DNA from: Anaeramoeba ignava BMAN
Taxonomy: Eukaryota > Protista > Anaeramoebae
Assembly (NCBI GenBank): GCA_028826165.1
Contig: JAPDFW010000073.1
Coordinates: forward strand, 62,001-126,000
Length of the DNA stretch: 64,000 nucleotides
Direction: 5' to 3'
The position numbers and the translations under genes were made by a program. Positions 789 through 57,107 of this stretch are shown one piece after another. A model generated the notes under the pieces. It was not told the origin of the DNA and made no database searches. It was given only the letters and a program-made list of their open reading frames with translations. Numbering within the stretch: the stretch's first letter is position 1; each line of letters begins with the position of its first letter.

Positions 789-3700
789 AAAGAGTTTTAA
801 ATGATGATGAAAAACCTTTAGAACTTGGTCTAACTTTATCTTCTCAAGAACCAGATGAATGGAAATCATTCTTACATTTTAAAATTGCACGAAAAGATTT
901 GGTTTTATATTCTCAAAAAAAAATATATGAATTCATTTAAAATTTTAATTAAAAAATTTTTTTGTTAATTAAAAAGCTTACAGTAAAAATTTTTAGAAGA
1001 AATTCAAGTGAACCTTTAGCTTTTATTATCAATGAAAACTCTAATATTCAAAAACTTATTGAATTAATAGCATCAAAATTTCCAGTTGAAGATATTAAGA
1101 AAACTTTTATTCAAGAACAATTTGGAAATGAAAGTTTGAATTTCAATTTAAAATTTGAATTTAAAATTTAATTAAAATTTTTTAAACACAAAAAAAAAAG
1201 AACCTCAAATTATTGATAATCAAAAGAAAATTATTGATATAATTAAAGGATGGGGAGATAAATGTGAAAATTATAAATTTCTTTATAAAGATTCAAATCT
1301 TCAAATTAAAGTAAAAATTAAAATTAAAATTTAAATTAAAATTTAAAATTAAAATTATTTATAAAAAAAAAAAGGGAATGGAAGATTTCTTTTATAAATA
1401 TGAAAGTCAAAAAATTGAAGATGTTTCTTTTGATGAAATTAATAGAAATATTATGGATATTGTTGTTGAAGGAAATTCTTTTTATCTTAAAAATGAAGGT
1501 AAAAAAAAATTTATAAATATTAAAAATAATAAATATTAAATAAAAAAAATAATAAAATAGGATTTGTTGATGATACAAAAGGAAATTCAGAATTTATTCA
1601 TGATAATTTATCATTATTAGATCGAATTAAAAAAGTTGATTTCTTTTTTTTTTAAAAAAATTTATAAATTAAAAAATTAAAAAATTTAAATTATAAAAGG
1701 AAATGGATGATGAAGATAGTCAATTTTCAAAATATTTGCAAAGAAGTAAACAAATGATTGATAATAAAATTGATGCCTATCTTGAAATAGCTGTTGTAAG
1801 TTTATTTTTTTTTAAATGGAAAATTGAAAAGAATTTCCTTTTTATAAATGAAAATAATTATTAAAATTAATAAAAGCCAAAAGTAGCAAAAATATTGGAA
1901 TTAAAGGATGTCATGAGATAACAACTTTAGTGAATTCATTTGAATCAATGAAAGAAAAATATCGAAAGAAAAAGTTCAAGAATATGCAAGAAATGTGAAA
2001 GATTTAGATTCTTTATATATAGTATTAGAGTAGCTAAAAATCCAAGGAGGAATTATTGATTTAATAAAACAAGATCTTGGAGTTTATTTTTAATACCAAA
2101 AACGAATTAGAAATGGCAACAGTTGATTTAACAAAACAAACAGGAACTCGTAGATAATAATAATATTATTATTTTAATTATTTTAAAAAGAAATATTGAT
2201 TTGAAATTTTTGCTTTATAATAGTTTCATTTCTTTCAAATCCAATAAGAGAAGGTTTTCTGCTTAAGAAAAGCCGAACTTGGGGAAGAAAAATTATTATA
2301 TTTAGTTTTAACACCAAGATTTCTTCATTATTTCCACGTTCCAAAAATAAAGAAGATTCACTTGAAGAAATTTTACAATCAGGAAAACCTCATCAATCTT
2401 TACCTTTATCAATTATAAAAGTGCAAAGAACCGTTCTTGAACAGCAAACAACATCAAAAGAAACAAGTAAAGAACAAAAAGGAAGTTGAGGGGAAGAAAA
2501 GGATATTTCCATTGATTACACTTTTGATATCATTTATGATACAAATCGATACCATTTTGTTGCAGCTTCTGAATTTGAAATGAATGAATGGATTCGATTA
2601 ATTAATTTGATTAAATCAAGAGTCTCAGAGAAAAACAATACAAGTCCATCGCGTCAACCAAAACTGCAAATATGAATATTCAATTAATTATATTGGTGAG
2701 CAAGACGCGCAATCTCTGGATTATAAAGCGGAAGAAGGAACTTATCAAATCCAAATTGAAAGTTTTAATGATAAATGGATTTTCACAAAAAAATTTGTTG
2801 ATTTTATTGATTTGGGAGAAACTTTGAGGAAATTGCTCCCCATTTTTATTTTCCCAACAGTTCCAAAGAATTTTAGATTGGGAGGAGTTATTAGAAACAG
2901 AATATCAACTTTAGTTGGGAAAAAAGCAGAAGAGCCGCCAAAAAAAGAACAAAAATCAGGGAAAAAAGGTTTTTTCAAATCCATTTTTAAAGACAACAAA
3001 AAACCCAAGGTTGTATTGAATGAAACAGCAATTAGACTTGGAAATGATTTTATTTATTCCTTTTTGAATGAATTACTTGTTAATTTTAGAGTCAATCAAT
3101 TGCCTGAAGTTTTGGATTTTTTTGGAATTAATAATATTTTTTTGGCAATCAAACAAAACAATCTTGACTTTGTTAAATATTTAACAATCAATGATACACT
3201 TTATACATTATCAAGAAAACAAACTGGGAAAACACCAATTCATTTTGCTGCAAAACTAAGATTGGATTTACTTAAAGTTATTATTGAAAATATTGATGAT
3301 ATGAAAAAAAACAAAAGTTTGGATATTGATTTTGATTTGGATATTTGTCATGTGAATTCCAAAGATCAAGATGGAACAACAATATTATTGCAATCAGTAT
3401 ATGATTTAAGGAAGGATGTTTTTGATTGTTTAATTGATAGAGAAGATATAAAAGTTGATATTGCTGATAATAATGGTTAATTTTTTTTTTAAAAAAAAAA
3501 AGCAAAAAGAAATTTTAAAATTGAAAAATTATTTTTTATATATATATAAAAAAAAAGGTTTTACTCCTTTTCTTGCTTCTTTCAAAAAAAACTTATTGGA
3601 TTTTTCAAAAAAATTGGTTGAAAAAATTGTGATATTAATTGTCAGGATGAAGAAACAAAAAACTCAGCTCTTCATTATGCATTTATAAATGGAAATATTG

Positions 3701-5796
3701 AAGGAGTAAATTTTTTGATTCACAGAGGAATTGATCTTGATTTGCAAGATAAATATGGAAGAACAGTATTGATGCTAGCAGTAACATCAAAAAGAGACGA
3801 TGTGATAAACAAACTGCTTGAATCAGAAGCAAATGTGAATATTCAAAATAACAATTTTAAAACAGCGCTTCATTATTGTGTTGAGCAAAATAATATAAAC
3901 TTAACTAACGAAATGCTTCAAAAAGAAGGCGATCCAAATATTGAGGATGAAAACAAGGAAACTTGCCTTCATTTTGCAGTTATGAATAGAAATTTGAAGA
4001 TGATTGAGCTGCTTCTTGATCATAAAGCATCACCCAACAAGCAAAACATCAACGGAATGACACCACTTCATCTTGCAATCACACAAGAAATTAAAAAACA
4101 AGTTCAAATCATGGAATTGGATTCAAATCAAAATGATGTTCAAAAACAAGCTTCATCACTTGAAATTATAAAGCTGCTAATTGAAAAGGGGAGCGCAATT
4201 GTGGACACACAAAATGCAGAAGGAAACTATCCTATTCATTCATGTGTAATTCGGAAAGACATGGATTTACTAACATATTTACTTCAGAATAAAGCAAACA
4301 TCAATGCGGGAGATAGGGACGGAAGAACCCCACTTCATCTCGCAGCGTTGTCTTCAAACAACAGAATAATCGAACTTTTGGTGTCTTTTAATTCCGTTGT
4401 TGATATCTCTGACATTACTGATGTTGGCAGTTCACCTATTCATTTAGCTGCTGAAAATAATAATATTGAAGGAATTATGTTTTTACTCAGAAATGGATCA
4501 TCAATTAATTGTCTTAGACAAGATAGAAAATCACCTTTGCATCTTGCTGCAAAGAATGGCTTTAATGATCTTGTTTCTTTATTAGCTGAAAATGGAGCTG
4601 ATGTTAATCTTCAAGATTTTGATGGGAATACACCTCTTCATCTTAGTCTTAAAAGCAATCATGAAAGAACTTCTGCTTTAATTGCACAAAGTGGAGGTTA
4701 TTTGAATATGATTAATAATAAAGGTCAATCACCTTTACAATTAGCTAAGAATTCTAAAATTAAAAAAATGATTAAGGAAGCAAGTGAAAGATTTGCGAGT
4801 CAAGGTTTAACAAAACGAGGAACAATTCCTAATAGTAAAAACCAATTAAAATTAAAATTCATTTATAAAATTCATTTATAAAATTCATTTATAAAATTCA
4901 TTTATAAAATTCATTTATAAAATTAAAATAAAATTCAAATTAAAATTCATTTATAAAATCAAAATTAAAATTAAAATTAAAATCAAAATTAAATTCATTT
5001 ATAAAATTAAAATTAAAATTAAAATTAAAATTAAATTAAATTTAAAATTCATTTATAAAATTAAAATTAAAATTAAAATTAAAATTAAAATTAAAATTAA
5101 AATTAAAATTAAAATTAAAATTAAAATTAAAATTAAAATTAAAATTAAAATTAAAATTAAAATTAAAATTAAAATTAAAATCAAAATCAAAATTAAATTC
5201 ATTTATAAAATTCATTTATAAAATTAAAATTAAAATTAAAATTAAAATTAAAATTAAAATTAAAATTAAAATTAAAATTCATTTATAAAATTAAATTCAA
5301 AATTAAAATTAAAATTAAAATTAAAATTTAAATTCAAAAATATTTAGTTGTTACAGATATTAGAACTCCAGAATCTTCTATAGAATCTCATGATAAAAGA
5401 AAATCATTTAATCCAATGGGTGGTTTAGCTCTTGAAAAATTAAAATCTGCTAAATCAGCAGTTGATGCTCATGGTTTAATTCCAGAATATCTTAAAATTG
5501 TTTTCCATCTTAATGATAAAGCTGATGATTTTAAATCAAGAATTTCTACAAGAATTAATTTTGAATCTTCAGAAATTGAAAATGTTAAAGATATTTTAAT
5601 TTTTGCAAAAAAGAAAATTAAATTTGATCCTGAAAATGATGATCTTGATTCTTTTACAATTCTTTATGAAGATGAATCAAAAGAATATATTATTATTGAT
5701 TTTGAAACAAAACTTGAAGAAATTTTTAAATTTGGAAAATTAATTCATATTTTTCATAAAGAAGACTTTTTAAAATTATTTGGTTTATTTAAATGA
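789..5796 (+). CDS. Multi-exon signalling scaffold, 5' partial: RA/ubiquitin-like, helical region, PH, PX, ankyrin repeats, C-terminal PB1-like domain
   Basis: RVLNDDEKPLELG (RA-like, ~790); IREGFLLKKSRTWG..LVLTPRFLHYF and SEFEMNEWIRLI (PH, ~2245-2620); YQIQIESFNDKWIFTKKFVDFIDLGETLRKLLPIFIFPTVPK (PX-like); many G.TPLHLA ankyrin repeats (3220-4750); FTILYEDESKEYIII (PB1-like). Short GT-AG introns plus an (AAAATT)n intron at ~4834-5347; a few apparent frameshifts. Confidence 0.8.
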
Positions 5797-5868
5797 AAAA
5801 ATTTCAAGAAATCTTTTTTTCATTTTTTTCATTTTTATCTTTCCAAAAAAATTAAAAAATAAAAGAAA

Positions 5869-7651
5869 ATGAATGAAATTATATTTTTTGGAAGAAATGA
5901 AAAACCAAAACTTATCAAAAATGAAACAGAAAAAATAACAAAACCAATTCAATTTAAATTTAAAATGAAAATGAAAATGAAAATGAAAATGAAAAACAAA
6001 TTAAACAAATTTCAACAGGAGAATTTGCAACAATTTTCCTTTTTAAAAATGGAAAAGCAATAGAATATTTAAAAGAAAATGATTCAAATCAAAATCCTTC
6101 AAAAATCCAAATTGAAGAAAATATTCAAAAAGTAACTGTTGGTTATGATAATGAAGCTATTTTAACAATAGAAGGAAATGTATTTGCCAAAGGAAAAGAT
6201 ATTAATCCAAAAATCCAAATAAATTTATCAATATTTCATCATTAATTGAAGATACAAATGATAGAATAATTGAAGATATTGTTTCTAGTGCTGATTCAAT
6301 TTACTTATTAACTTCAAATCAAAATGTTTATGGAATTGGCTCAAATGTATTTGGTCAACTTGGTTTTGATTCTAAAACACTTGAAAAAACAGAAAAACCA
6401 ATTTTAATGATGAAAAATGTTTCTAAAATATTTTCAGGAACTTCTTCTCTTCATGTTTTTCTTTTAAATTCAAATCAAGAATTATTTGGATGCGGATTTA
6501 ATGTAAATGGTCAGCTTGGATTAGGAAAATCGTTATATGAGACAAAATTCGATAAATTAACCAAAATCCAAAATATTCCAAAAGGTAAAATAATTGATAT
6601 TAAATGTGGATTTAATCATTCAATAATGTTGATTGAAAATGAAAATGAAAATGAAAATCCAAAAAGAAAACTTTATTCATGTGGGTATTATCGATATAAT
6701 GGACTTGGCAAAACTAAAGATACTTATAAATTTACTGAAATCAAATCATCTTTATTTGAAAATGATGATGATAATATTATTGATTTTTCTATTGGTTATT
6801 ATCATACTTTGATTTTAACTTCCAATTCGAAATTAATTGTATTTGGAGATAATGATTTTGGTCAATTAGGAATTGGAGATATAATTAAACAATTAATTCC
6901 AATTCAAATTGAACTTCCTAAATTAAGATTTAATGAAAATATTTCCAATTATCATATCTCTTGTGGATATTCTAAATCATTTATTTATTATTATTCTTCT
7001 TTTTCCAATCTTGAAGAAGATTTGATAAAATTATTTGAAAGAAAAGAATTTTGTGATATTTCATTTAAAACAGAAAATGGAGAAATAATCTCAGCTCATA
7101 AATTAATATTGAAATATAGATTAAATCAAAATCAAAATGAAATTGAAAAACTTCAAGAAATTATTTCAAAAAAATCAATTAAAGAATCAAATCAAATATT
7201 TGAAATGATTTATTCAAACAATTCCATAATAAATCCAAAATTATATTCTGAAATTAAAGAAATTATAAATTCAAATGAAAAAATTGAAGAAACAATGAAA
7301 AGAATTTATTTAAATGAAAATGAAAATGAAAAAGATTTTATAATTGAAAGAAAAGAAAAACAATATAAATTTCCAAAATTAATATTAATAATGAGAAGTG
7401 AATTATATCGAGGAATGTTTTTATCTGTAACTGAAGATAAATCTAATAAAGTTACAGATTATAGTGAATTAAGTAATAAATCATTTCAAATATTTGAATA
7501 TTGGATTTATTCAAATCAAATCAAAGATGAAATTGAAATTACTCAAGAAATCCTTAATGAAATTCAAATAGGAATTGATTATTTTCAATTAAATCAAACA
7601 AATCCAAATTTATTTGATTTATTAATTAACAAATTTAATAATCAAAATTAA
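5869..7651 (+). CDS. RCC1-repeat + BTB protein, copy 1 (two apparent 1-nt frameshifts near 5963 and 6210)
   Basis: G.N..GQLG and CG..HS/T RCC1 motifs; FCDISF..AHKLIL BTB motif; collinear with the intact copies at 7895 and 13043. Confidence 0.85.
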
Positions 7652-7860
7652 AATTAAAATTAAAATCAAAATTAAAATTAAAATTAAAATTAAAATTAAA
7701 ATTAAAATTAAAATTAAAATTAAAATCAAAATTAAAATTAAAATTAAAATTAAAATCAAAATTAAAATTAAAATTAAAATCAAAATTAAAATCAAAATTA
7801 AAATTAAAATTAAAATTAAAATCAAAATTAAAATTAAAATCAAAATTAAAATTAAAAATC
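7652..7860 (+). repeat. (AAAATT/AAAATC)n tail after RCC1-BTB copy 1
   Basis: Hexamer array starting at the stop codon. Confidence 0.95.
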
Positions 7861-7894
7861 CAAAAATCATTTTTTCATTTTTTTCTTTTCAAAA

Positions 7895-9670
7895 ATGAAT
7901 GATTGTTTATTTTTTGGTTTAAATCAATATCCAATTCTTATCAAAAATGAAACAGATACAATAACAAAACCAATTCAATTTAAATTTGAAAATGAAAATG
8001 AAAATGAAAATGAAAATGAAAAACAAATTAAACAAATTTCAACAGGAGAATTTGCAACAATTTTCCTTTTTAAAAATGGAAAAGCAATAGAATATTTAAA
8101 TGAAAATGATTCAAATCAAAATCCTGAAAAAATCCAAATTGAAAATATTCAAAAAGTAACTGTTGGTTGGCAAAATGAAGCTATTTTAACAATAGAAGGA
8201 AATGTATTTGCAAAAGGTGAAGATATTAATACAAAAAATCCAAATAAATTTATCAATATTTCATCATTAATTGAAGATACAAATGATAGAATAATTGAAG
8301 ATATTGTTTCTAGTGCTGATTCAATTTACTTATTAACTTCAAATCAAAATGCTTATGGAATTGGTTTAAATGTATTTGGTCAACTTGGATTTGATTCTGA
8401 AACACTTAAAAAAACAGAAAAACCAATTTTAATGATGAAAAATGTTTCTAAAATATTTTCGGGAAATACTTCAAATCATGTTTTTCTTTTAAATTCAAAT
8501 CAAGAATTATTTGGATGCGGATTTAATCAATATGGTCAACTTGGATTAGGAGAATCAAGAAAAAAAGAAACACTAATCCAAAAATTAACCAAAATCCAAA
8601 ATATTCCAAAAGGTAAAATAATTGATATTCAATGTGGATTTAATCATTCAATAATGTTGATTGAAAATGAAAATGAAAATGAAAATCCAAAAAGAAAACT
8701 TTATTCATGTGGATATTCTGGATTTAATGGACTTGGCAAAGATGAAAATACTTATGAATTTACTGAAATCGAATCATCTTTATTTGAAAATGATTATATT
8801 ATTCTTGATTTTTCTATTGGTTATTATCATACTTTGATTTTAACTTCCAATTCGAAATTTATTGTATTTGGACATAATGAATTTGGTCAATTAGGAACTG
8901 GAAATACAAAAGATCAATCAATTCCTATTCAAATTGAACTTCCTAAATTAAGATTTAATGAAAATATTTCCAATTATCATCTTTCTTGTGGATTTAGTAA
9001 TTCATTTCTTTATTATTCTTCTTCTTTTTCCAATCTTGAAGAAGATTTGATAAAATTATTTGAAAGAAAAGAATTTTGTGATATTTCATTTAAAACAGAA
9101 AATGGAGAAATAATCAAAGCTCATAAATTAATATTGAAATATAGATTAAATCAAAATCAAAATCAAATTGAAAAACTTCAAGAAATTATTTCAAAAAAAT
9201 CAATTAAAGAATCAAATCAAATATTTGAAATGATTTATTCAAACAATTCCATAATAAATCCAAAATTATATTTTGAAATTAAAGAAATTATAAATTCAAA
9301 TGAAAAAATTGAAGAAACAATGAAAAGAATTTATTTAAATGAAAATGAAAATGAAAAAGATTTTATAATTGAAAGAAAAGAAAAACAATATAAATTTCCC
9401 AAATTAATATTAATAATGAGAAGTGAATTATATCGAGGAATGTTTTTATCTGTAACTGAAGATAAATCTAATAAAGTTACAGATTATAGTGAATTAAGTA
9501 ATAAATCATTTCAAATATTTGAATATTGGATTTATTCAAATCAAATTAAAGATGAAATTCAAATTACACAAGAAATAATTAATGAAATTCAAATAGGAAT
9601 TGATTATTTTCAATTAAATCAAACAAATCCAAATTTATTTGATTTATTAATTAACAAATTTAATAATTAA
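7895..9670 (+). CDS. RCC1-repeat + BTB protein, copy 2 (591 aa, intact, intronless)
   Basis: Complete ORF with RCC1 repeats and two BTB-like segments (FCDISF.., KDFII..LILIMRSELYRGMF). Confidence 0.92.
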   Translation: MNDCLFFGLNQYPILIKNETDTITKPIQFKFENENENENENEKQIKQISTGEFATIFLFKNGKAIEYLNENDSNQNPEKIQIENIQKVTVGWQNEAILTIEGNVFAKGEDINTKNPNKFINISSLIEDTNDRIIEDIVSSADSIYLLTSNQNAYGIGLNVFGQLGFDSETLKKTEKPILMMKNVSKIFSGNTSNHVFLLNSNQELFGCGFNQYGQLGLGESRKKETLIQKLTKIQNIPKGKIIDIQCGFNHSIMLIENENENENPKRKLYSCGYSGFNGLGKDENTYEFTEIESSLFENDYIILDFSIGYYHTLILTSNSKFIVFGHNEFGQLGTGNTKDQSIPIQIELPKLRFNENISNYHLSCGFSNSFLYYSSSFSNLEEDLIKLFERKEFCDISFKTENGEIIKAHKLILKYRLNQNQNQIEKLQEIISKKSIKESNQIFEMIYSNNSIINPKLYFEIKEIINSNEKIEETMKRIYLNENENEKDFIIERKEKQYKFPKLILIMRSELYRGMFLSVTEDKSNKVTDYSELSNKSFQIFEYWIYSNQIKDEIQITQEIINEIQIGIDYFQLNQTNPNLFDLLINKFNN

Positions 9671-9878
9671 AATTAAAATCAAAATTAAAATTAAAATCAA
9701 AATTAAAATTAAAATTAAAATTAAAATTAAAATTAAAATTAAAATTAAAATTAAAATTAAAATTAAAATTTAAATTTAAATTAAAATCAAAATCAAAATC
9801 AAAATCAAAATCAAAATTAAAATTAAAATTAAAATCAAAATTAAAATTAAAATTAAAATTAAAATTAAAATTAAAATT
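9671..9878 (+). repeat. (AAAATT/AAAATC)n tail after copy 2
   Basis: Hexamer array starting at the stop codon. Confidence 0.95.
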
Positions 9879-9925
9879 CCAAAAAATTTATTTTCATTTT
9901 TTTCTTTTTCCATTTTTTTGTTTTG

Positions 9926-11519
9926 ATGTTTCAGTTTAATAATCTTCATCAACCAAGAAATTTGAAAATTGTTATTTTAATTCTGTTTTTATTTCTTTTG
10001 TTCAACTTTTTTTATTTGCACAATTTTAGTTTTTTTTCAAGTAAATTTGAATGAAATTTTTGAAAATTCCAAAAAAAAAAAAAAAAAAAAAAGAAGAATG
10101 TTTTTTTTATCATTAAATTTATTATAATTAAAAGAATCAAAAGAAGAAATTAGGGATCTTAAAAAAAAATTAGATGAAAAAAATATAGAATTAGAATCAA
10201 AAAAGAAAGAGATTGAAATTTTAAAACTAAGAATTTTTGAAGTTGAAGAAGAATTCCTTGATTTATTAGAAAAATATGAAGAAAAGGAAGAAAAGAAAAG
10301 AAATTTGCAATATTTTTTAACAAATCCAGATTTTCAATTTGATTATCTTTATGAAAATTATCAAAATCCATTTTTATCTCAAGATGAAAAAGATTTAAAA
10401 TTTTATGAAGAGCCAAATAAAGGAAAAAAAGCAACAATTAAGAAAATAACAACAACGAACAACCAAATTGATTATCAGATAAATTATCCACCTTTTATTT
10501 TAGATGCTCCACATTTTTTGGATCAACGAAGTTTTGATAAATTTATGTATTTGGAAAAAAAAAGATATAATCAAGTGATTGATAAAAAAAAAAGGAAATT
10601 GCATTTTGATTTTGATGAGATGAGTGTTGGAACTTTATCTTTTCTTCGTGATTTTAGTTTTTCCTGGGCTCCTTCATGCAATCCATATGCAAAATTAAGT
10701 GATTTCCAACCAGCAAATGGAAATACTCTTAATTTTGAAAAACTTTTGATTATAAACAGTGATTGGATTTGGCAATTCCAACATTGGATCGATCATTTTG
10801 GATGCTTGATAATGGATTTAAGACCACTTATAAAGGATAAAGGATGGACTATTTTTGTTCAATATCCAAGTGACGAAATTCTTCTTCAACTTTTTGATTT
10901 TATTAAAAAGGATCTTAATGTGAATATTGTTTATCAAAGTGATTCATATTCAATTCATGCTGAATATGCGCTTTTTCCTTGCACACTTCCAAAAGAAAAC
11001 CCAAGGAAATTTCTTGATCTCAAGCATTTCTTGTTAAAATCAATTTTGGAAACGGATCATTTTCAAGAATATCAAGATCCAAATCCGGAAAAAATTATAT
11101 ACTTGCCAAGAGTGAATAATTTGAATGGAAGAAATATTGTGAATAGTGAAGAAGTTGTGGATTATTTGAAAAATCGATATGGAGAAAATTTAGTCATATT
11201 TTCTCACAAAGAATATCCAGATTTGAAAGACTTGGTTCAATTGTTTTCAAGCGCAAAAGTTGTCGTTGGATTGCATGGAGGCGCTTTTTATAATATAATA
11301 TTTAGTTTATCTCATCCTGTTGTGATTGAATTTCATCAACCAAAATTTGGAGTTGCTGATGCTTCCATTTATTGGATTTCTCATACAACTGGTTCTGAAT
11401 ACTGGAGGTTGTTCTCAAAACAAAAAGATTTGGATTCAGTTATTGATTTGATTGCTTTAGAACAAGTCTTAAATCTTGCTCTTAAAGGAAAATTATCATA
11501 CAATTTGATCATAAATTAA
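9926..11519 (+). CDS. Type II membrane glycosyltransferase, family GT61 (DUF563-like)
   Basis: ATG at 9926 followed by a hydrophobic anchor; a phase-1 intron at 10041-10134 joins in frame to the 10305 ORF; motifs FQHWID, IIYLPR..RNIVNSEEV, QLFSSAKVVVGLHGGAFYNIIF..VIEF. Confidence 0.85.
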
Positions 11520-11594
11520 AACAAATTTTTCATTTTTTCATTTTTTTCTTTTTTTCATTTTTATCTTTCCAAAAAAATTAAAAAATAAAAGAAA

Positions 11595-12761
11595 ATGAAT
11601 GAAATTATATTTTTTGGAAGAAATGAAAATCCAAAACTTATCAAAAATGAACTAAATATAATAAGAAAACCAATTCAATTTAAATTTGAAAATGAAAATG
11701 AAAATGAAAAACAAATTAAACAAATTGCACCAAGAAATTATTCAATAATTTTCCTTTTTGAAAATGGAAAAGCAATAGAATATTTAAATGAAAATGATTC
11801 AAATCAAAAACCTGAAAAAATCCAAATTGAAAATATTCAAAAAGTATCTGTTGGTTTTCAAAATGAAGCTATTTTAACAATAGAAGGAAATGTATTTGCA
11901 AAAGGATTTAATATTAATCCAAGAAATTCAGATGAATTTATCAATATTTCATCATTAATTGAAGATAAAAATGATAGAATAATTCAAGATGTTGTTTGTT
12001 CAAGAAATTCAATTTACTTGTTAACTTCAAATCAAAATGCTTATGGAATTGGTTTAAATGTATTTGGTCAACTTGGATTTGATTCTAAAACACTTAAAAA
12101 AACACAAAAACCAATTTTAATTATGAAAAATGTTTCTAAAATATTTTCAGGAAATTCTTCAAATCATGTTTTTCTTTTAAATTCAAATCAAGAATTATTT
12201 GGATGCGGATCTAATAGATGTGGTCAACTTGGATTAGGAGAATCAATAAAAGAAACACTAATCCAAAAATTAACCAAAATTCAAAATATTCCAAAAGGTA
12301 AAATAATTGATATTCAATGTGGATTTAATCATTCAATAATGTTGATTGAAGATGAAAATCAAAATCCAAAAAGAAAACTTTATTTATGTGGAGATTATAA
12401 ATATAATCAACCTTTTCAAAAAGAAAATACTTATGAATTTACTGAAATCAAATCATCTTTATTTGAAAATGATGATATTATTGATTTTTCTGTTGGAGGT
12501 GCTCATAATTTGATTTTAACTTCTAATTCAAAATTGATTGGATTTGGAATTAATGATTATGGCCAATTAGGAACTGGAAATATAATTAAACAATTAATTC
12601 CAATTCAAATTGAACTTCCTAAATTAAGATTTAATGAAGAAATTTCTAATTATCATCTTTCTTGTGGTTTTTCAAAATCATTTCTTTATTATTCTCCTCC
12701 TTCTTTTTCCAATCTTGAAGAAGATTTGATAAAATCAAAATTAAATCAAAATCAAAATTAA
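11595..12761 (+). CDS. RCC1-repeat protein, copy 3, lacking BTB (388 aa)
   Basis: Paralogue of the other copies up to SNLEEDLIK, then runs directly into the (AAAATC/T)n tail. Confidence 0.88.
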   Translation: MNEIIFFGRNENPKLIKNELNIIRKPIQFKFENENENEKQIKQIAPRNYSIIFLFENGKAIEYLNENDSNQKPEKIQIENIQKVSVGFQNEAILTIEGNVFAKGFNINPRNSDEFINISSLIEDKNDRIIQDVVCSRNSIYLLTSNQNAYGIGLNVFGQLGFDSKTLKKTQKPILIMKNVSKIFSGNSSNHVFLLNSNQELFGCGSNRCGQLGLGESIKETLIQKLTKIQNIPKGKIIDIQCGFNHSIMLIEDENQNPKRKLYLCGDYKYNQPFQKENTYEFTEIKSSLFENDDIIDFSVGGAHNLILTSNSKLIGFGINDYGQLGTGNIIKQLIPIQIELPKLRFNEEISNYHLSCGFSKSFLYYSPPSFSNLEEDLIKSKLNQNQN

Positions 12762-13008
12762 AATCAAAATTAAAATTTAAATTTAAAATCAAAATTAAAA
12801 TTAAAATTAAAATCAAAATTAAAATTAAAATTAAAATTAAAATTAAAATTAAAATCAAAATCAAAATCAAAATTAAAATTAAAATTAAAATTAAAAATTA
12901 AAATCAAAATTAAAATTAAAATCAAAATTAAAAATAAAATTAAAATTAAAACCAAAATCAAAATTAAAATTAAAATCAAAATCAAAATTAAAATTAAAAT
13001 TAAAAATC
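12762..13008 (+). repeat. (AAAATT/AAAATC)n tail after copy 3
   Basis: Hexamer array. Confidence 0.95.
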
Positions 13009-13042
13009 CAAAATTCATTTTTTCATTTTTTTCTTTTTAAAA

Positions 13043-14812
13043 ATGAATGAAATTTTATTTTTTGGTTTAAATCAATATCCAAAACTTATCAAAAATAAAC
13101 CAAATAAAATAACAAAACCAATTCAATTTAAATTTGAAAATGAAAATGAAAAACAAATTAAACAAATTTCAACAGGACATTTTTCAATAATTTTCCTTTT
13201 TAAAGATGGAAAAGCAATAGAATATTTAAAAAAAAATAATTCAAAACAAAATCCTGAAAAAATCCAAATTGAAGAAAATATTCAAAAAGTAACTGTTGGT
13301 AATGAAAATGAAGCTATTTTAACAATAGAAGGAAATGTATTTGCTAAAGGAGAAGATATTAATCCACAAAATACAAAAGAATTTATCAATATTTCATCAT
13401 TAATTGAAGATAAAAATGATAGAATAATTGAAGATATTGTTTCTGGAGCTCGTTCAATTTACTTATTAACTTCAAATCAAAATGTTTATGGAATTGGATC
13501 TAATGGTTATGCCCAACTTGGTGTTGATTCTGAAACACTTCCAAAAACAAAAAAACCAATTTTAATGATGAAAAATGTTTCTAAAATATTTTCAGGAAAT
13601 ACTTCAAATCATGTTTTTCTTTTAAATTCAAATCAAGAATTATTTGGATGCGGAAATAATGAACAAGGCCAACTTGGATTAAGAAAATCAATAAAAGAAG
13701 ACACAATCCAAAAATTAACCAAAATCCAAAATATTCCAAAAGGTAAAATAATTGATATTCAAGGTGGAAATAAGCATTCAATAATGTTGATTGAAAACCA
13801 AAATCAAAATGAAAATGAAAACCCAAAAAGAAAACTTTATTCATGTGGATATTATGAATATAATGGATTTGGCAAAAAATATCAAAATACTTATGAATTT
13901 ACTGAAATCAAATCATCTTTATTTGAAAATAATGATAATATTATTGAAATTTCTGTTGGATATTTTCATACTTTGATTTTAACTTCTAATTCGAAATTAA
14001 TTGGATTTGGATATAATAAATTTTGTGAATTAGGAACTGGAGATACAAATAAGCAATCAATTCCAATTCAAATTGAACTTCCTAAATTAAAATTTAATGA
14101 AAATGTTTTCAATTATCATATTCATTGTGGATTTTTCAATTCATTTCTTTATTATTCTCCTCCTTCTTTTTCCAATCTTGAAGAAGATTTGATAAAATTA
14201 TTTGAAAGAAAAGAATTTTGTGATATTTCATTTAAAACAGAAAATGGAGAAATAATTGAAGCTCATAAATTAATATTGAAATATAGATTAAATCAAAATC
14301 AAAATGAAAAACTTCAAGAAATTATTTCAAATAAATCAATTAAAGAATCAAATCAAATATTTGAAATGATTTATTCAAATAATTCCAAAATAAATCCAAA
14401 ATTATATTTTGAAATTAAAGAAATTATAAATTCAAATGAAAAAATTGAAGAAACAATGAAAAGAATTTATTTAAATGAAAATGAAAATGAAAATGATTTT
14501 ATTATTGAAAGAAAAGAAAAACAATACAAATTTCCAAAATTAATATTAATAATGAGAAGTGAATTATATCGAGGAATGTTTTTATCTGTAACAGAAGATA
14601 AATCTAATAAAGTTAGAGATTATAGTGAATTAAGTAATAAATCATTTCAAATATTTGAATATTGGATTTATTCAAATCAAATCAAAGATGAAATTGAAAT
14701 TACTCAAGAAATCATAGATGAAATTCAAATTGGAATTGATTATTTTCAATTAAATCAAACAAATCCAAATTTATTTGATTTATTAATTAACAAATTTAAT
14801 AATCAAAATTAA
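13043..14812 (+). CDS. RCC1-repeat + BTB protein, copy 4 (589 aa, intact, intronless)
   Basis: Complete ORF; the BTB half is nearly identical to copies 1 and 2. Confidence 0.92.
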   Translation: MNEILFFGLNQYPKLIKNKPNKITKPIQFKFENENEKQIKQISTGHFSIIFLFKDGKAIEYLKKNNSKQNPEKIQIEENIQKVTVGNENEAILTIEGNVFAKGEDINPQNTKEFINISSLIEDKNDRIIEDIVSGARSIYLLTSNQNVYGIGSNGYAQLGVDSETLPKTKKPILMMKNVSKIFSGNTSNHVFLLNSNQELFGCGNNEQGQLGLRKSIKEDTIQKLTKIQNIPKGKIIDIQGGNKHSIMLIENQNQNENENPKRKLYSCGYYEYNGFGKKYQNTYEFTEIKSSLFENNDNIIEISVGYFHTLILTSNSKLIGFGYNKFCELGTGDTNKQSIPIQIELPKLKFNENVFNYHIHCGFFNSFLYYSPPSFSNLEEDLIKLFERKEFCDISFKTENGEIIEAHKLILKYRLNQNQNEKLQEIISNKSIKESNQIFEMIYSNNSKINPKLYFEIKEIINSNEKIEETMKRIYLNENENENDFIIERKEKQYKFPKLILIMRSELYRGMFLSVTEDKSNKVRDYSELSNKSFQIFEYWIYSNQIKDEIEITQEIIDEIQIGIDYFQLNQTNPNLFDLLINKFNNQN

Positions 14813-15122
14813 AATCAAAATTAAAATTAAAATTAAAATTAAAATTAAAATTCAAAATTAAAATTAAAATTAAAATTAAAATTAAAATTAAAATTAAAAT
14901 TAAAATTAAAATTAAAATTAAAATTTAAAATTAAAATCAAAATTAAAATTAAAATTAAAATTAAAATTAAAATTAAAATTAAAATTAAAATTAAAATTAA
15001 AATTAAAATTAAAATTAAAATTAAAATTAAAAATAAAATTAAAATTAAAATTTAGAATTAAATTTATAATTAAAATCAAAATTAAAATTAATATTAAAAT
15101 TAAAATTAAAATTAAAAATTAA
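14813..15122 (+). repeat. (AAAATT)n tail after copy 4
   Basis: Hexamer array. Confidence 0.95.
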
Positions 15123-15456
15123 AAAAATTTTTTTTTCTTTTTTTTCTTTTTCATTTTTTTATTTAATATCATTCTTTTACAAATATTAAGTTGCTTATAT
15201 ATTTATTTTCATGATAGTTTTGTGCGAATTGTGTATATTTATGGATTTAACAATAATTTAATTAATAGTTTAATTACTTAAACATTTATCTATTTTTTAA
15301 CCTTAAAATAAAATAGTTTTTTTTAGTATTCTTATATGCTTCTATAAGTTCGATTATAAGTTCGATTATTAGTGTGTTTATATGAGTGCTTTTGTTTTGA
15401 CTTTTGTTATTGTTTCTTTTCATCTTCCATCTTATTTTTCTTGAAATTGCTACTGT

Positions 15457-15526
15457 TTAATAAGAATCATTGATATCTTTTTTTTGCGTTTTTTTTTGTT
15501 TTGTTTTGTTTTTTTTTTTTTTTTTG

Positions 15527-15557
<31 letters not shown>

Positions 15558-16593
15558 TGCGTTTTGTTTTGTTTTGTTTTGTTTTGCTTTTTGGAACAGG
15601 TGTGTATAGAGGAGTGAGGAAATCATCTCCTTTTGTCTGGTTTTCTTTAGTTTGAGGTTCATTTTCATATTCATATTCAGATTCATATTCAGATTCTTTT
15701 TCAGATTCTTTTTCATTCGAATTTTGAGTTGAAGTGTGAGATTCACCAATATAATTATATAATTCCTGGTTGAGAGTTAGATCGTGATTCTTTTCATTTG
15801 AATAAATTCCTTTTTCATTTTTAGATTCATCATCTTTTTCCATTTCGATTTGAGTTTTGATTTTGAATTCGATTTGAGTTTTGATTTTGATTTTGTCCCA
15901 ATTGTTTTAGAAGTGTTCTTTTACTTTCATTTTGATTTGTTTGAGGTGAGGAAAAGAATGAATTTGAATTTTGAAAATTTTGATAATTTTTTTGTTCCAT
16001 TTGTTGCTTTAGTTGATTCACTAAAGATTTGAATTCTTCTTTTTGTGGTTCTTGAAACATTGAAGAGTGCCATTTTGCTATGCCCTTTCCGATTTCTTCT
16101 TGGGTTTCTTTACTGTTACCATTTTTAAGAAGCTTATAACAAATATATTTTTTTTAGTTGAATTGGCGCCTGTACTTAAATTGTTGAATTCACTACGCAC
16201 TCCTAAATAATCCATAATTTGATAATATGGGCATAGGCTAATATTTCCTGTTCCTTTTCTCATATCACATAGTGAGAATGTTATCTGCTTGTTTTTTTTC
16301 TCTTGTATATGAGATTTTCAATATTATTTATTTTGATGTAATTCCAAGCAAATCAATTAATAAAAAATGAACAAAAAATTATTACTAACGAAATATTTCT
16401 TTAAATACCTTGTGATTGAGTGATTTCTCGAACATTTTGTGAAAAAATTTTGTAAATTTCTATTACCATTATTCTCGTAATTATTCTCATAATTATTGTT
16501 ATTGCGATTCATCTCTGCTTGCATATGCATTTCTTGAGTTTCATTAAAATTTCTTTCAGTTGAATTTTCAATAATTTGATCTCTGCTGTTCAT
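15457..16593 (-). pseudogene. Orphan gene or pseudogene of unknown function (fragmented), probably cargo of the adjacent element
   Basis: ORFs 16357-16593, 16078-16263, 15830-16060 and 15457-15843 join via a probable intron (GT at ~16408) and 1-nt shifts; N/Q-rich and E-rich low-complexity tail; no recognisable domain. Confidence 0.45.
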
Positions 16594-16619
16594 TACTTTA
16601 TTGGACTGGAATTCTATTT

Positions 16620-16883
16620 AAATTATTATATTATATTATATTATATTATATTATATTATATTATATTATATTATATTATATTATATTATATTATATTATA
16701 TTATATTATATTATATTATATTATATTATATTATATTATATTGACCATTTTTTCGAGAAGATATTATATTATATTATATTATATTATATTATATTATATT
16801 ATATTATATTATATTATATTATATTATATTATATTATATTATATTATATTATATTATATTATATTGACCATTTTTTCGAGAAG
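16620..16883. repeat. (ATATT)n microsatellite interrupted by two copies of TGACCATTTTTTCGAGAAGA
   Basis: 20-mer at ~16742 and ~16865, each preceded by ~100-120 bp of pentamer. Confidence 0.9.
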
Positions 16884-17124
16884 ATGTCCGATCAAATATA
16901 TATTTTTTTAGACCCCTAATTGATAAGAGAAACAACATAGGAAAGAGTTTGTTTGGTATAAAATAATATATTGGTTTTTTTATCCCAAAAATGAAATGGC
17001 CAAAATTCAAATGATTTTTTGGAACAAAATTCTTATTATGATTTCTCAGAGAAATAAATTAAAAAAAAAAACTAAAAAGAATATTTTGGGTGAGAAAGTT
17101 TTGTTTTGATGAAGAATTTATGTT

Positions 17125-18167
17125 TTAATATTTCTTTCTGATTTTTCTTTTTCTGTATTTCCCTGTGCTTGATAACAATCTCACATGAACCTCTCCTTTC
17201 CGCGTAAAAAGAAACTGATGATATTTTCGAATATTTTTTAGAGTTATTGTTTCTGTAATATGTTTATGAATGGCTAAAGTATTTTTCATGTTATTGAACA
17301 TTTCTACATATTCTTGGGGAGAATATTTTTTTTCACCTTTGAGTTTCAATCTGGTCTCAAGTTGTTTTATGTTACCGAAATGTCCATCACATCCAGAGCA
17401 TTCATGATGTGACACAAAGAAATTATATTCTATTGGAATTTTTAACTTTGGGATAATTTTAATAAAAAATAAAAAAGCTTGGAACTTTTAAAATGTGGAC
17501 CACCATCACTCCATATTTGAACTTTTTCATAAGATGCAAAATATTCATGCTCTTCAAGATAAGTAAAAGCTGAGATGACATATTTAGCATCTTGTGGAAA
17601 ACCTTGAGAAACAAAATCTAAATAATTGAGACTTCTTTCTCCTTCAGCATTTGTGATTCTAATGATGTTCAGATCAGACACTTGTTTTTATTATGTCCAT
17701 CTCTTCCACATCTCGAGCAATGGTAATGTCTTTTGGATCTCTTTCTTTTGGGCTTTTCTTCTTGATCTTGATCGGTTATTTCAATTGAAGATTGGACTAA
17801 ATTGTGAATTTGTTCATCCAACTTTTCTTTTTTTTCTTCCGTGATTTGAGAAACAATTTGAACAGCACTGTTCTTTGGGAGTTCCTGATCAACAGCATTA
17901 ATTAAAGGATTTTGTTCAAAAGTAAATGGAGTCTGGTTTGTAATCCTCCCCTTTTTTTGTTTTTAATTGAGAAACTAAATTGAAAAGGTGATAAATCAAA
18001 TATTTAGTTTCTAATTGGCATGGATCTTCGGCAATTCCCATTTGTTGAGCGTATTCTTTATATAAATTAATTGAACTTTTTGTTGACTTTTCAGTCTGTT
18101 TGGGGACCGAGATTCGAATTTGTTTTTGAAGATCTTGTTTTTCTTGAAGGATAAAATTTCTCTTCAT
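17125..18167 (-). mobile_element. Degenerate chimeric transposon coding region: Crypton-like YR N-terminal fragment + CCHC zinc knuckle + Sola-like DDE transposase C-terminal half
   Basis: 18167-17916: SVPKQTEKSTKSSINLYKEY..LKTKKGEDYKPDS; ~17935-17670 in another frame: KRHYHCSRCGRDGHNKNKC; 17681-17125: YLDFVS..QDAKYV..QIWSDGGPHFKS..(1-nt shift)IEYNFFVSHHECSGCDGHFGNIK..IRKYHQF. Termini not found. Confidence 0.7.
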
Positions 18168-18206
18168 GATAAAATGAAATATAATTAGAATTATTTTATT
18201 GTCCTT

Positions 18207-19235
18207 AAACTTATATTTATTTTTAAATCATTTTTGAATTAATTTAGATAATAAATTCTTTTTATAAATTATATAAATAAATTATCTTACATTTTAATTT
18301 TGATTTTTATTATTTAATTTTTGATTGAATTTATATTAAAAATGTTTAAAATATTTTATTAATTATTTAATAAAGAAAATAAATAATAAAATTATATTTT
18401 ATATTATTAATTTATTTCAAATTAATTTATACTTTAAATTTAATTAAATATTATTATTTAAATTTATTTAAAATTATTTTATTTTTTTGGAATAGAATTA
18501 ATTAAATTTAATTTTTTTTGATTTAAATTTATATTTATTTTTAAATCATTTTTGAATTAATTTAGATAATAAATTCTTTTTATAAATTATATAAGTAAAT
18601 TATTTTATATTTTAATTTTGATTTTTATTATTTTATTTTTGATTAAATTTATATTAAAAATGATTAAAATATTTTATTAATTATTTAATAAAAATTAAAT
18701 AATAAAATTATATTTTATATTATTAATTTATTTCAAAATTAATTTATAATTTAAATTTAATTAAATATTATTATTTAATATTAATTTAAAATTATTTTAT
18801 TTTTGGAATAGAATTAATTAAATTTAATTTTTTTGCTTTAAACTTATATTTATTTTTAAATCAATTTTGAATTAATTTAGATAATAAATTCTTTTTATAA
18901 ATTATATAAATAAATTATCTTACATTTTAATTTTGATTTTTATTATTTTATTTTTGATTAAATTTATATTAAAAATGATTAAAATATTTTTTATTTATTT
19001 AATAAAAATTAAATAATAAAATTATATTTTATATTATTAATTTATTTCAAAACATAATTTAAATTTAATTAAATATTATTATTTAAATTTATTTAAAATT
19101 ATTTTATTTTTGGAATAGAATTAATTAAATTTAATTTTTGTTTTAAATTTATATTTATTTTTAAATCAATTTTGAATTAATTTAGATAATAAATCCTTTT
19201 TATAAATTATATAAGTAAATTATCTTACATTTTAA
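18207..19235. repeat. AT-rich tandem repeat, ~305-317 bp unit, ~3.3 copies
   Basis: TTATATTTATTTTTAAATCA..GAATTAATTTAGATAATAAAT recurs at ~18210, 18528, 18844 and 19149. Confidence 0.9.
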
Positions 19236-19354
19236 TTAACATTTTCTCTTTGTTTTTTTTTATAAATTTGTTTTTGAAATTTTCATTTGATTTTTTCTTT
19301 TTATTTCTTTTTATTTTTTTAATTTAAAAAAAAAAAATGAAAAATGAATAAAAG

Positions 19355-19998
19355 TTTTAAAATCATTTCTTAATTAATTTTATTGCAAAATATTAAATTA
19401 ATTATAATTAAAAATTAAGTAAAATAATAAATAAAATATTTTAATTAAATTTATCTCTTGATTATTAATAATATTAATTTAATATTAATAATAAATTCTT
19501 TTTTAAAATCATTTCTTGATTAATTTTATTGCAAAATAGTAAATTAATTATAATTAAAAATTAAATAAAATAATAAATAAAATATTTTAATTAAATTTAT
19601 TTCTTGATTTTTAATGATATTAATTTAATATTAATAATAAATTCTTTTTTAAAATTATTTCTTAATTAATTTTATTGCAAAATAATAAATTAATTATTAT
19701 TAAAAATTAAGTAAAATAATAAATAAAATATTTTAATTAAATTTATTTCTTTATTTTTAATAATATTAATTTAATATTAATAATAAATTCTTTTTTAAAA
19801 TCATTTCTTAATTAATTTTATTGCAAAATAATAAGTTAATTATTATTAAAAATTAAGTAAAATAATAAATAAAATATTTTAATTAAATTTATTTCTTTAT
19901 TTTTAATAATATTAATTTAATATTAATAATAAATTCTTTTTTAAAATCATTTCTTAATTAAATTTATTGCAAAATATTAAATTAATTATAATTAAAAA
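19355..19998. repeat. AT-rich tandem repeat, 146-bp unit, ~4.4 copies
   Basis: TTGCAAAA at 19383, 19529, 19675, 19821 and 19967 (spacing 146 each). Confidence 0.92.
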
Positions 19999-20083
19999 TT
20001 TTTCATTTTTTTTTTCATTTTTTTCCTTTTTTTTAAAAACACAAAAACAAAAAACACAAAAAACAAAAAACACAAAACAAAAA

Positions 20084-21748: not shown

Positions 21749-22864
21749 AAATTAATTAATAATAAGAAAATCAAACTTTTTTTTTTTAATTTTTTTTTTT
21801 TCAAAATTTAATTCAATTTTAATTTACTTTTAATCAAATTAATTTCTTTAAAATAATAAATAAGAAACAAATTTAATTTTAAATAATTTAATTTTAATTT
21901 AAAATATTTATTAAAAATTTAATTAATAAAAAATAATCCAAAAAAAAAAATAATAAATTTTAAAAAATTGAATATTTTTAATATAATAAATAAAAATAAA
22001 AATTGAAAATAGAAATTAATAATAATTAAATTTAAATTCATTAATTAAAATATTAAAATAAAAAAAATCAAATAAAATTTATTATTAATTAATATTTAAA
22101 TATTAATAAATTATAATCAAAATCAAAAATAGAATAATTAGTAAATTATTTTTTTAGAAAGTTTATCTTATTCAATCATGTTAAATTCAATTTATTTAAA
22201 ATTTTTAATTTTTATTTTTAATATATTTTATTATAATTAGGAATTGGAATAATAAATAATTAAAAATATTAATATAATAAATAAAAATATTATATAAATT
22301 AAAATAAAATAAATTTAAATTAAATTATTATTAAATATTATTAAAATTAGATATTTATGTTTATTAAAATATTTATTCCACTTTTTTTAATATATTTTAT
22401 TATAATTAAAATTAAAAAAAATAAATAAATAAATAAAATAAAAAATAAATTAATATAATAAATCTTTTATTAAAAAAATATTAAAATTAAATTTTACATT
22501 AAAATAAAATAAATTTAAATTAAATTATTATTAATTATTATTAAAATTAAATATTTATCTTTATTAAAATATTTCAATTTTTTCTCAATTTTATTTAAAC
22601 TATTTGGAATAATTTTATATTATTTTAAAATAAAAAAATATTAATAAAATATATAAAATATAATTAATTTTAAATTTAATCATTTAATATTCTTTATTCC
22701 ATTTTTGAAATAAATTAATGAAAAAGATTTTATTAATTTTATTAAATTATTGGGAATAGTTTTATATTATTTTAAATAAAGAAAAATTAATAAAATATAT
22801 AAAATATAATTAATTTTAAATTTAATTATTTAATATTCTTTATTCCATTTTTGAAATAAATTAA

Positions 22865-23150
22865 TGAAAAAGATTTTATTATTGAAAGAAAAGAAAAACA
22901 ATATAAATTTCCAAAATTAATATTAATAATGAGAAGTGAATTATATCGAGGAATGTTTTTATCTGTTACAAATGATACTTCTAATAAAGTTACAGATTAT
23001 AGTGAATTAAGTAATAAATCATTTCAAATATTTGAATATTGAATTTATTCAAATCAAATTAAAGATGAAGAAATTAAAATTACACAAGAAATTATTGATG
23101 AAATTCAAATTGAAATTGATTATTTTCAATTAAATCAAACAAATCTAAAT
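22865..23150 (+). pseudogene. 3' fragment of an RCC1-BTB gene (second BTB-like segment only) with an in-frame TGA
   Basis: KDFIIERKEKQYKFPKLILIMRSELYRGMFLSV..FEY*IYSNQIK..DYFQLNQTN; no upstream coding sequence. Confidence 0.88.
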
Positions 23151-23269
23151 TAAAATTATAATCAAAATTAAAAATGGAAAAAACCTTTTCTTTTCTGTTT
23201 AATTTTTTTGAAAAAAAAAGAAAAAGTTTCCAAAAAATGGAACGAATCAAAAAAAAAAGGGATGTGAAG

Positions 23270-56800: not shown

Positions 56801-57107
56801 TTTGATTTTGTTCACGAGCTTCAGATTGAGTTTCTTTGATATTTTGTTTGAGTTGTTCGTTTTCTTGAGTTAAAAGTAAAATGTCTTTTTTGTCTCTTTT
56901 TTTAGAAAGAATTGATTGAAGTTTTTGACTTTTTGCCATTTCTTCTTTTAAAGAATTTTTTAATTGAATCATAATTTTTTTTTGATTCATAAGTTTTTCT
57001 CTTAATTCATATTTTTCAGTTTTAATTCCAACAAGTTCTTGTTGAAGAGAAACAAAATCTTCAACGGAAATTGAAGTTTCTTTTTGATTTGTTGAATTAT
57101 TTTTCAT
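53856..57107 (-). CDS. GRIPAP1: Long coiled-coil protein, GRIP1-associated protein 1 (GRASP-1)-like
   Basis: ISVEDFVSLQQELVGIKTEKYELRE; ERKISERKSLEIIKDLKAQL; KSNVIQHF..MQILLEENILKNIQLQQHIDILGKEIDRL; intron ~54697-54786; apparent shifts at ~55520 and ~54175 (the ORF as assembled stops at 54172). Confidence 0.7.

Follow-up and report, generated by a model that had tools for sequence, protein, structure and literature searches.

Antibodies, the VLR proteins of lampreys and the NLR proteins of plants combine a fixed framework with a variable surface rich in Tyr, Ser, Asn and Asp, and share diversifying selection and exchange between paralogs. An RCC1 propeller followed by two BTB domains is found in RCBTB1 and RCBTB2 (CLLD7/CHC1L) and in IBTK/Btb1, which are low-copy conserved genes. 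RhoBTB and ankyrin-BTB proteins also end in a BTB pair, with a different N-terminal domain, and to our knowledge they do not form hypervariable repertoires. RCBTB1 has been described as a substrate adaptor of CUL3 (PMC4974088), IBTK is reported as a CUL3 adaptor (PMC4447969) and RhoBTBs assemble cullin-3 complexes (PMC4931677). In nematodes, F-box and MATH-BTB adaptors form families of hundreds of paralogs under birth-and-death evolution, in which a conserved cullin-binding domain is joined to a positively selected substrate-binding domain and for which the degradation of foreign proteins was proposed (PMC8665587, PMC12951971). Here we analysed a stretch of 64,000 nucleotides of Anaeramoeba ignava BMAN (assembly GCA_028826165.1, contig JAPDFW010000073.1, positions 62,001 to 126,000 of the forward strand), called the window below and numbered from its first letter. 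It is about 80% AT, eukaryotic in character, and carries four same-strand RCC1–BTB paralogs between positions 5869 and 14812, where the first-pass annotation of this DNA had placed them. They belong to a large family in which variation is concentrated on one predicted face of the propeller, and which probably constitutes a repertoire of cullin substrate receptors.

By analogy, the closest precedent would be the nematode F-box/MATH-BTB repertoires, with a build like that of RCBTB1/2; RCBTB1 is the nearest named Atlas cluster (0.94, by Atlas resemblance only). The A. ignava family differs from RCBTB1/2 and IBTK in its approximately 600 paralogs, a selected face, pervasive recombination, a degenerate BTB1 and the lack of a predicted 3-box. 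Like the nematode repertoires, it is a large lineage-specific expansion with broken copies, and the ratio of nonsynonymous to synonymous substitution (dN/dS, omega), calculated on four genes only, is 6.6 on the putative binding face and 0.15 on the putatively cullin-binding BTB module. Unlike them, it occurs in a single-celled anaerobic host, uses an RCC1 propeller as the presumed recognition domain, is young and homogeneous (85–93% identical outside about 40 sites) and is near linkage equilibrium along the gene; a term search of the accessible text of the two nematode papers (PMC8665587, PMC12951971) did not find ‘gene conversion’. What sets it apart from known repertoires is the host, the recognition fold, the youth and homogeneity of the family and the degree of recombination. 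The differences from antibodies, VLR and NLR proteins are an unrelated fold, germline encoding and a predicted cytosolic location, and somatic assembly is not indicated.

The variation was analysed in 139 full-length members retained from 194 proteins (53 fell outside 575–630 amino acids (aa) or did not start with MN, and two more were removed for gaps). Forty-one positions had an entropy of at least 2 bits: 13 in AB loops, which bear the motif G-x-x-H, 27 in CD loops, covering the motif G-x-N-x-x-G and the approach to strand D, and one at the start of a B strand. The BC and DA loops contained none, and neither did the 213 positions of the BTB module. In the topology of a four-stranded antiparallel blade the AB and CD loops lie together, and 40 of the 41 positions cluster on one predicted propeller face, the faces being assigned from the secondary structure of the model and not from its coordinates. 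The G-x-x-H loop aligns with the GWRH motif of UVR8, which sits at the UVR8 dimer interface and is part of the interaction face (PMC4501546). Mean entropy was 1.35–2.01 in the loops of the variable face versus 0.23–0.50 in those of the opposite face, and both sets are equally exposed.

In mean pairwise identity the BTB module reached 93% and the propeller framework 85%, but the variable sites only 21%; in 30 hold-out members picked by propeller similarity alone the values were 89.5%, 84% and 23%, and the contrast is thus between one face and everything else, not between propeller and BTB. The string of variable residues was distinct in all 139 members. Between the window copies the framework is 83–91% identical (269/325 to 302/333), compared with 6–14 matches at 37–38 variable sites. 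At 29 core variable sites Tyr makes up 23% of residues, against 9–11% expected under neutral AT-rich codon usage, and Ile only 2%, against 16–24%; Lys is depleted too. In the opposite-face loops Tyr reaches just 0.2%, compared with 22–23% at the core variable sites. Such a tyrosine-rich face resembles antibody paratopes.

Selection was assessed with a class of 39 variable sites defined on 112 other members and then tested on the DNA of the window; dN/dS and the nucleotide recombination tests relied on the four window copies only. In the codon model the nucleotide targets were taken from fourfold sites, and low-complexity EN/QN tracts were masked in the selection and linkage analyses. Omega was 6.6 at variable sites (likelihood ratio test against omega = 1, p = 2e-25), 0.64 in the framework (p = 0.015) and 0.15 in the BTB module (p = 1e-10). 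For the variable codons alone omega was 4.4 (p = 0.013); for loops delimited by motif and topology, with limits chosen after the entropy profile was known, it was 2.2 (p = 8e-6). The bootstrapped ratio of dN at variable sites to dS of the whole gene was 8.2 (5.9–11.9) over all pairs and 6.2 (3.4–10.9) when only the intact pair, copies 2 and 4, was used. Within variable codons, fourfold sites were not elevated (1/14 versus 55/503), which argues against plain hypermutation. In all probability, diversifying selection acts on a binding face. The first-pass annotation had described a hypervariable propeller and proposed dN/dS and structure mapping as checks. The ratio is indeed well above 1 at variable sites, and these sites lie, with one exception, in loops of one face; the description holds for the roughly 40 loop sites, around which the framework is conserved.

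The same annotation had read motifs shared by alternating pairs of copies as gene conversion that shuffles specificity loops. Every quoted loop motif is present in the four copies (GFNVNGQ/GFNQYGQ/GSNRCGQ/GNNEQGQ; SSADS/SSADS/CSRNS/SGARS; GYDN/GWQN/GFQN/GNEN), as is the pairwise sharing: IIKQLI in copies 1 and 3; SSADS and SIGYYH in 1 and 2; AYGIGLNVFG, KETLIQ and QCGFNH in 2 and 3; EDKND and YSPPSF in 3 and 4; and IEENI in 1 and 4. Informative sites were clustered along the gene when all 35 codons were used (p = 0.00025), but not for the 23 non-variable ones (p = 0.16), and in none of the six window pairs did a GENECONV-like run survive Bonferroni correction; the claimed switching of trees among the four copies is therefore borne out only in part. 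Taken alone, these copies provide weak and mixed evidence of recombination, and it is the wider family that makes the case strong.

Across the family, r2 between the 123 biallelic sites outside the variable class was 0.046 at a distance of 1–3 codons and 0.008–0.009 (about 1/n) beyond. Nearest neighbours agreed between adjacent windows of the alignment in only 4–9% of members, and the family tree is star-like, with an internal length of 1.35 out of 10.1. Two dimorphisms of two residues each, almost without intermediates, divide the family about 55:45: EI/DC at aa 3–4 (r2 = 1.00) and NS/RI at aa 451–452 (r2 = 0.97). Their four combinations occurred 40, 29, 30 and 26 times (p = 0.72), and 44, 43, 32 and 31 times among 169 members. 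As these tight blocks assort at random, one tree cannot carry both, which points to pervasive recombination and agrees with the expectation of the first-pass annotation that no single tree would fit. A mosaic is directly visible in P0084 and P0093, whose identity goes from 72% to 97% along the propeller. Loop haplotypes, counted after the removal of two near-duplicates, are not wholly independent: the excess of sharing over expectation was 1.6-fold between adjacent loops and 1.37-fold between non-adjacent ones. Recombination spans the whole gene, including the BTB module, and linkage is largely gone beyond about three codons. We consider exchange among paralogs, by gene conversion or by crossing-over, very likely. 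The idea of conversion shuffling specificity loops needs to be modified, as recombination is real but acts gene-wide, and the loop diversity is best explained by positively selected point substitutions that were then reassorted.

AlphaFold2 (AF2) predicted a confident seven-bladed propeller for aa 1–377, with a predicted local distance difference test (pLDDT) mostly above 85. Foldseek matched it to HERC2-RLD2 and RCC1 (E about 1e-24, target TM score 0.75–0.80) and also to RPGR and UVR8; Pfam, AF2 and Foldseek thus agree on an RLD propeller of seven four-stranded RCC1 blades. The BTB module fell below pLDDT 50 in the first fold, owing to a shallow alignment, which was fixed by an alignment of 94 diverse homologs (A2: 93 of 149 new representatives plus the module of the window); the C-terminal 214 aa then reached pLDDT 95. 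A profile search of the PDB with A2 was swamped by ankyrins. The best structural match of the module was the tethered Miz1-BCL6 BTB heterodimer (Z 15.6, root mean square deviation 4.0, 192 residues aligned), followed at Z 10–12 by the single BTB domains of gigaxonin, KLHL, SPOP and A55; the matches include SPOP, KLHL and KEAP1 complexes with Cul3. We read the model as two BTB folds packed in an intramolecular pseudo-dimer, with a shortened BTB1 and a complete BTB2, where the first-pass annotation had named one BTB module. The highest-scoring hydrophobic window of 19 residues reaches only 0.80, and with no sign of a signal or transmembrane segment the proteins are presumably cytosolic.

In the BTB fold of this model, the alpha3–beta4 region of BTB2 is among the most conserved stretches in the 94 distant homologs, which are mostly 27–49% identical. 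The same region forms the main Cul3 contact in KLHL3 (PMC3616122). The position of the phi-x-E motif, defined as a large hydrophobe, any residue and Glu (PMC3616122), reads V-T-E-D or V-T-N-D in the family and V-x-D in most distant homologs (V in 77 and D in 82 of 94). The same tandem-BTB module is fused to ankyrin repeats in 43 of the 94, to RCC1 in 20, to Ras in seven and to WD40 in 4–6, and such varied fusions would fit the modular layout of substrate adaptors. Nineteen of 20 tandem-BTB representatives checked are named A. ignava. No RCC1 match was found in 111 of the 149 representatives (proteins P0215–P0342); the ankyrin, Ras and WD40 fusions may represent a wider expansion of BTB adaptors, perhaps with the same pattern of selection. 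Eight cullin-family genes, of no stated subtype, are listed for A. ignava in PMC11550330 (Supplementary Data 4C), and the same source gives an expanded set of 45 and 44 for A. flamelloides. We regard a coupling of the module to a cullin as fairly likely.

The family numbers about 600 paralogs. The whole-protein search gave 1012 proteins at E ≤ 1e-10 (7997 candidates scored), the propeller search 630 clusters at E ≤ 1e-100 and the BTB-module search 578 clusters at E ≤ 1e-60, these being totals that were not checked row by row. Among the best 120 matches of each search all named rows belong to A. ignava (119, 118 and 118 of 120) and the remainder are the window's own. Twenty-one of the best 120 propeller matches lack a Pfam BTB domain, many of them with frameshift-like tails. 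The BTB-less members share a few of these tails (ISKIN, KWRNN and PILKKI) in the groups P0348, P0354, P0355, P0372 and P0380; P0350, P0359 and P0374; and P0382 and P0395. The recurrent tails may be homopolymer sequencing errors; switching by slippage is a less likely source. The assembly published for the named homologs was built from nanopore reads and polished with Pilon (PMC11550330), and broken copies may accordingly be pseudogenes or errors.

In Supplementary Data 4C of the same publication, three PANTHER families that bear the names given to these proteins contain 364, 213 and 21 proteins of A. ignava, compared with 159/158, 174/235 and 1/2 in the A. flamelloides strains and fewer than 40 in most other taxa; the divergent relative M0811_10877 appears in the first of the three. 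In four public runs, thousands of short variant contigs (1,115–20,275 per run) mapped to copy 1, consistent with many real paralogs, from which they do not set this copy apart. Over positions 5998–7645 the summed contig depth of runs X2 and X4 was far greater on the propeller half than on the BTB half, whereas X1 and X5 were even; contig depth is not a valid basis for comparing parts of one gene. When alignment A1 (113 of the best 120 whole-protein matches plus copy 4) was scanned against metagenome and viral contigs, with low sensitivity to distant relatives, 0 of 190 and 0 of 302 pattern matches, respectively, were confirmed, which gave no sign of a viral origin there. No RNA run was listed among the sequencing runs with matching sequence, which carries no information on expression. 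Transcriptome-derived EukProt records, looked up by exact identity, were found for two of 30 clusters, both distant relatives (P0214 and P0239), and for none of the young clade among these 30. The main text of PMC11550330, as far as it was accessible, contains no occurrence of BTB, RCC1 or cullin, the related counts being given in one supplementary table. No description of the family was found in the literature searched, which left some supplements of that paper and subscription journals outside its coverage.

In the window, Pfam hits above the cut-off comprised RCC1/RCC1_2 repeats in all four copies and BTB in copies 1, 2 and 4. Copy 1 (5869..7651, plus strand, as are all four) consists of a propeller to about 7003 and a tandem BTB at 7004–7651. 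Two 1-bp deletions, near 5961 and 6209, leave it without a full-length open reading frame (ORF) in the assembled sequence; they may mark a pseudogene or homopolymer errors of long reads. Copy 2 (7895–9670) is a single intact ORF of 591 aa, with a seven-bladed propeller (7895..9028, aa 1–378) that bears the hypervariable AB- and CD-loop positions, and a tandem BTB1–BTB2 (9029..9670), the predicted pseudo-dimer, ending at helix 6 of BTB2 without a 3-box. Copy 3 (11595..12761) has a complete propeller and a deleted BTB module; its last family residues are NLEEDLIK, after which the frame enters the downstream hexamer repeat at about 12733. Copy 4 (13043..14812) is an intact single ORF of 589 aa, with propeller and tandem BTB, the latter from about 14171. 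An RCC1 propeller with two BTB folds is thus true of copies 2 and 4 and, frameshifts aside, of copy 1, but not of copy 3. Likewise, the near-identity of the BTB halves noted earlier applies to copies 1, 2 and 4 (208/213, 202/210 and 203/210), as copy 3 has none.

A glycosyltransferase-61 ORF identified by Pfam (10305..11519, plus strand) lies between copies 2 and 3, splitting the two gene pairs, and is probably outside the RCC1–BTB system. An AAAATT/AAAATC hexamer array follows copy 1 (7640..7860), similar arrays follow copies 2, 3 and 4 (about 9660–9880, 12735–13010 and 14800–15120), and others occur elsewhere in the window. One upstream leader is common to copies 1 and 3 and another to copies 2 and 4, a pattern that would fit duplication of a two-gene block. 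Such a duplication would explain the sharing between copies 1 and 3 at the 5' end without conversion, which the first-pass annotation had invoked. An orphan BTB2 fragment of the same family (22863..23151, plus strand), 93% identical to copy 4, contains an in-frame stop. Its junction with an AT-rich repeat is a 15-bp word found in both gene and repeat (also at 22720), which suggests microhomology-mediated rearrangement. Just 5' of copy 1, at 2812–5797, lies an ankyrin-repeat gene split by a 500-bp hexamer array, probably an intron. A BTB ORF, a coiled-coil-like stretch and a TLDc ORF at 20155–21748 probably form one frameshifted or spliced BTB-TLDc gene of another BTB family. At 46974–49584 an aromatic amino-acid lyase-like ORF overlaps a histidyl-tRNA synthetase ORF, possibly as one fused gene with a frameshift or intron, and long ORFs without a Pfam match occupy 30609–32351, 54779–57107 and 58720–61986.

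The explanation that we modestly favour is that these roughly 600 RCC1-propeller/tandem-BTB proteins are a repertoire of interchangeable cytosolic substrate receptors, in which one propeller face, positively selected and recombined between copies, would bind fast-evolving foreign proteins, and the conserved BTB2 surface would pass the bound protein on, to be destroyed, to a ubiquitin ligase built on a cullin, probably Cullin-3. The targets would be effectors of intracellular bacteria, viruses or mobile elements, and a foreign target is in itself likely. A bolder version remains tentative and, on balance, unlikely: a germline-encoded, recombining intracellular ‘antibody’ system of about 600 Tyr-rich propeller faces, kept near linkage equilibrium by a constant exchange of short tracts, that polices symbiosis by sending proteins of bacteria, symbionts or viruses to a cullin ligase.

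However, a number of observations weigh against the receptor repertoire. The dN/dS values come from an AT-rich genome and from four genes that offer few synonymous sites, the BTB-less and frameshifted members bring the functional count below 600, and the BTB conservation is partly a matter of ascertainment, being 89.5% in the hold-out versus 93%. Moreover, in simulation a star tree with fast recurrent mutation (rates of 5–10 or more) mimics the summary linkage statistics, and since both processes reproduce these, only the random assortment of blocks separates recombination from recurrent mutation. As regards cullin, phi-x-E is degenerate: L-K-E of KBTBD4 aligns to T-E-D, and the alternative register V-T-E offers a small hydrophobe and a Glu replaced by Asn in 45 of 169 members. 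The model contains no 3-box/BACK helices after BTB2, the chain ending at helix 6, and such a box greatly raises the affinity of SPOP for Cul3 (PMC3616122). The best match being a BTB heterodimer of transcription factors, the fold does not single out cullin binding, and the RCC1 region of IBTK is described as dispensable for binding its substrate Pdcd4 (PMC4447969).

Most of these last points are shared by the strongest rival, a binder repertoire without cullin, in which the tandem BTB would be a scaffold, for oligomers or for some different invariant partner, and the propellers would act on their targets by sequestration, inhibition or sensing. The missing 3-box, the degenerate phi-x-E and the non-cullin heterodimer as best fold match all speak for it, and propeller-only forms exist (copy 3, P0381). 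However, most BTB-less forms have frameshift-like tails, the conserved BTB2 patch coincides with the Cul3-binding region of BTB adaptors, and a role as CUL3 adaptor is described for RCBTB1 (PMC4974088), the nearest of the named families (Atlas score 0.94), so that we hold this rival to be improbable, though worth keeping in view. The same adaptor mechanism with an internal target, such as selfish elements, toxin–antidote systems or self/non-self (mating, kin) recognition, is still less probable. Its attraction is that the fast-evolving F-box adaptors of nematodes also hit proteins of the host by mistake and bring about hybrid incompatibility (PMC12951971), that Anaeramoeba is rich in inteins (PMC10710043) and that none of our data names the ligand. 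Yet hundreds of distinct faces (139/139 unique) suggest a very broad target set, and Anaeramoeba species house bacterial symbionts, one of which, in a different species, has a Dot/Icm secretion system (10.64898/2026.04.11.717937).

An expansion of neutral or selfish repeats whose loops are relaxed, or an error introduced when many near-identical copies were assembled and polished, would account for the many broken copies (copy 1, copy 3, the orphan fragment and the 21 of 120 without BTB) and would suit the nanopore and Pilon assembly behind the named homologs (PMC11550330). It is largely refuted, and very unlikely, as omega is far above 1 and not about 1 at the variable sites and 0.15 in the BTB module, equally exposed opposite-face loops are conserved, the composition departs widely from mutational equilibrium, chimeras of read length would preserve linkage across about 50 codons where almost none exists beyond three, and thousands of variant contigs map to copy 1 in four public runs. 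Targeted hypermutation of a diversity-generating-retroelement-like or deaminase-like kind is hardly credible: in 88 of 225 codon-pair comparisons at variable sites the two codons are 2–3 nucleotides apart, and A is involved in 73% of the differences there versus 65% in the framework, but fourfold sites within the variable codons are not raised, all six substitution types occur with no clear A-only spectrum, and no reverse transcriptase family match was found among the 21 ORFs scanned in the window.

Returning to the proposed receptor repertoire, its roughly 600 clusters would make up approximately 4% of the 14,817 listed A. ignava proteins. With one fixed scaffold, about 40 defined positions and one candidate cullin interface the system is tractable, and the family would represent a naturally selected library of propeller binders. 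For nematodes and plants, it has already been suggested that diversified repertoires of ubiquitin-ligase adaptors serve innate immunity, and the A. ignava case, if true, would extend such immunity to single cells, in a free-living protist that houses symbionts.

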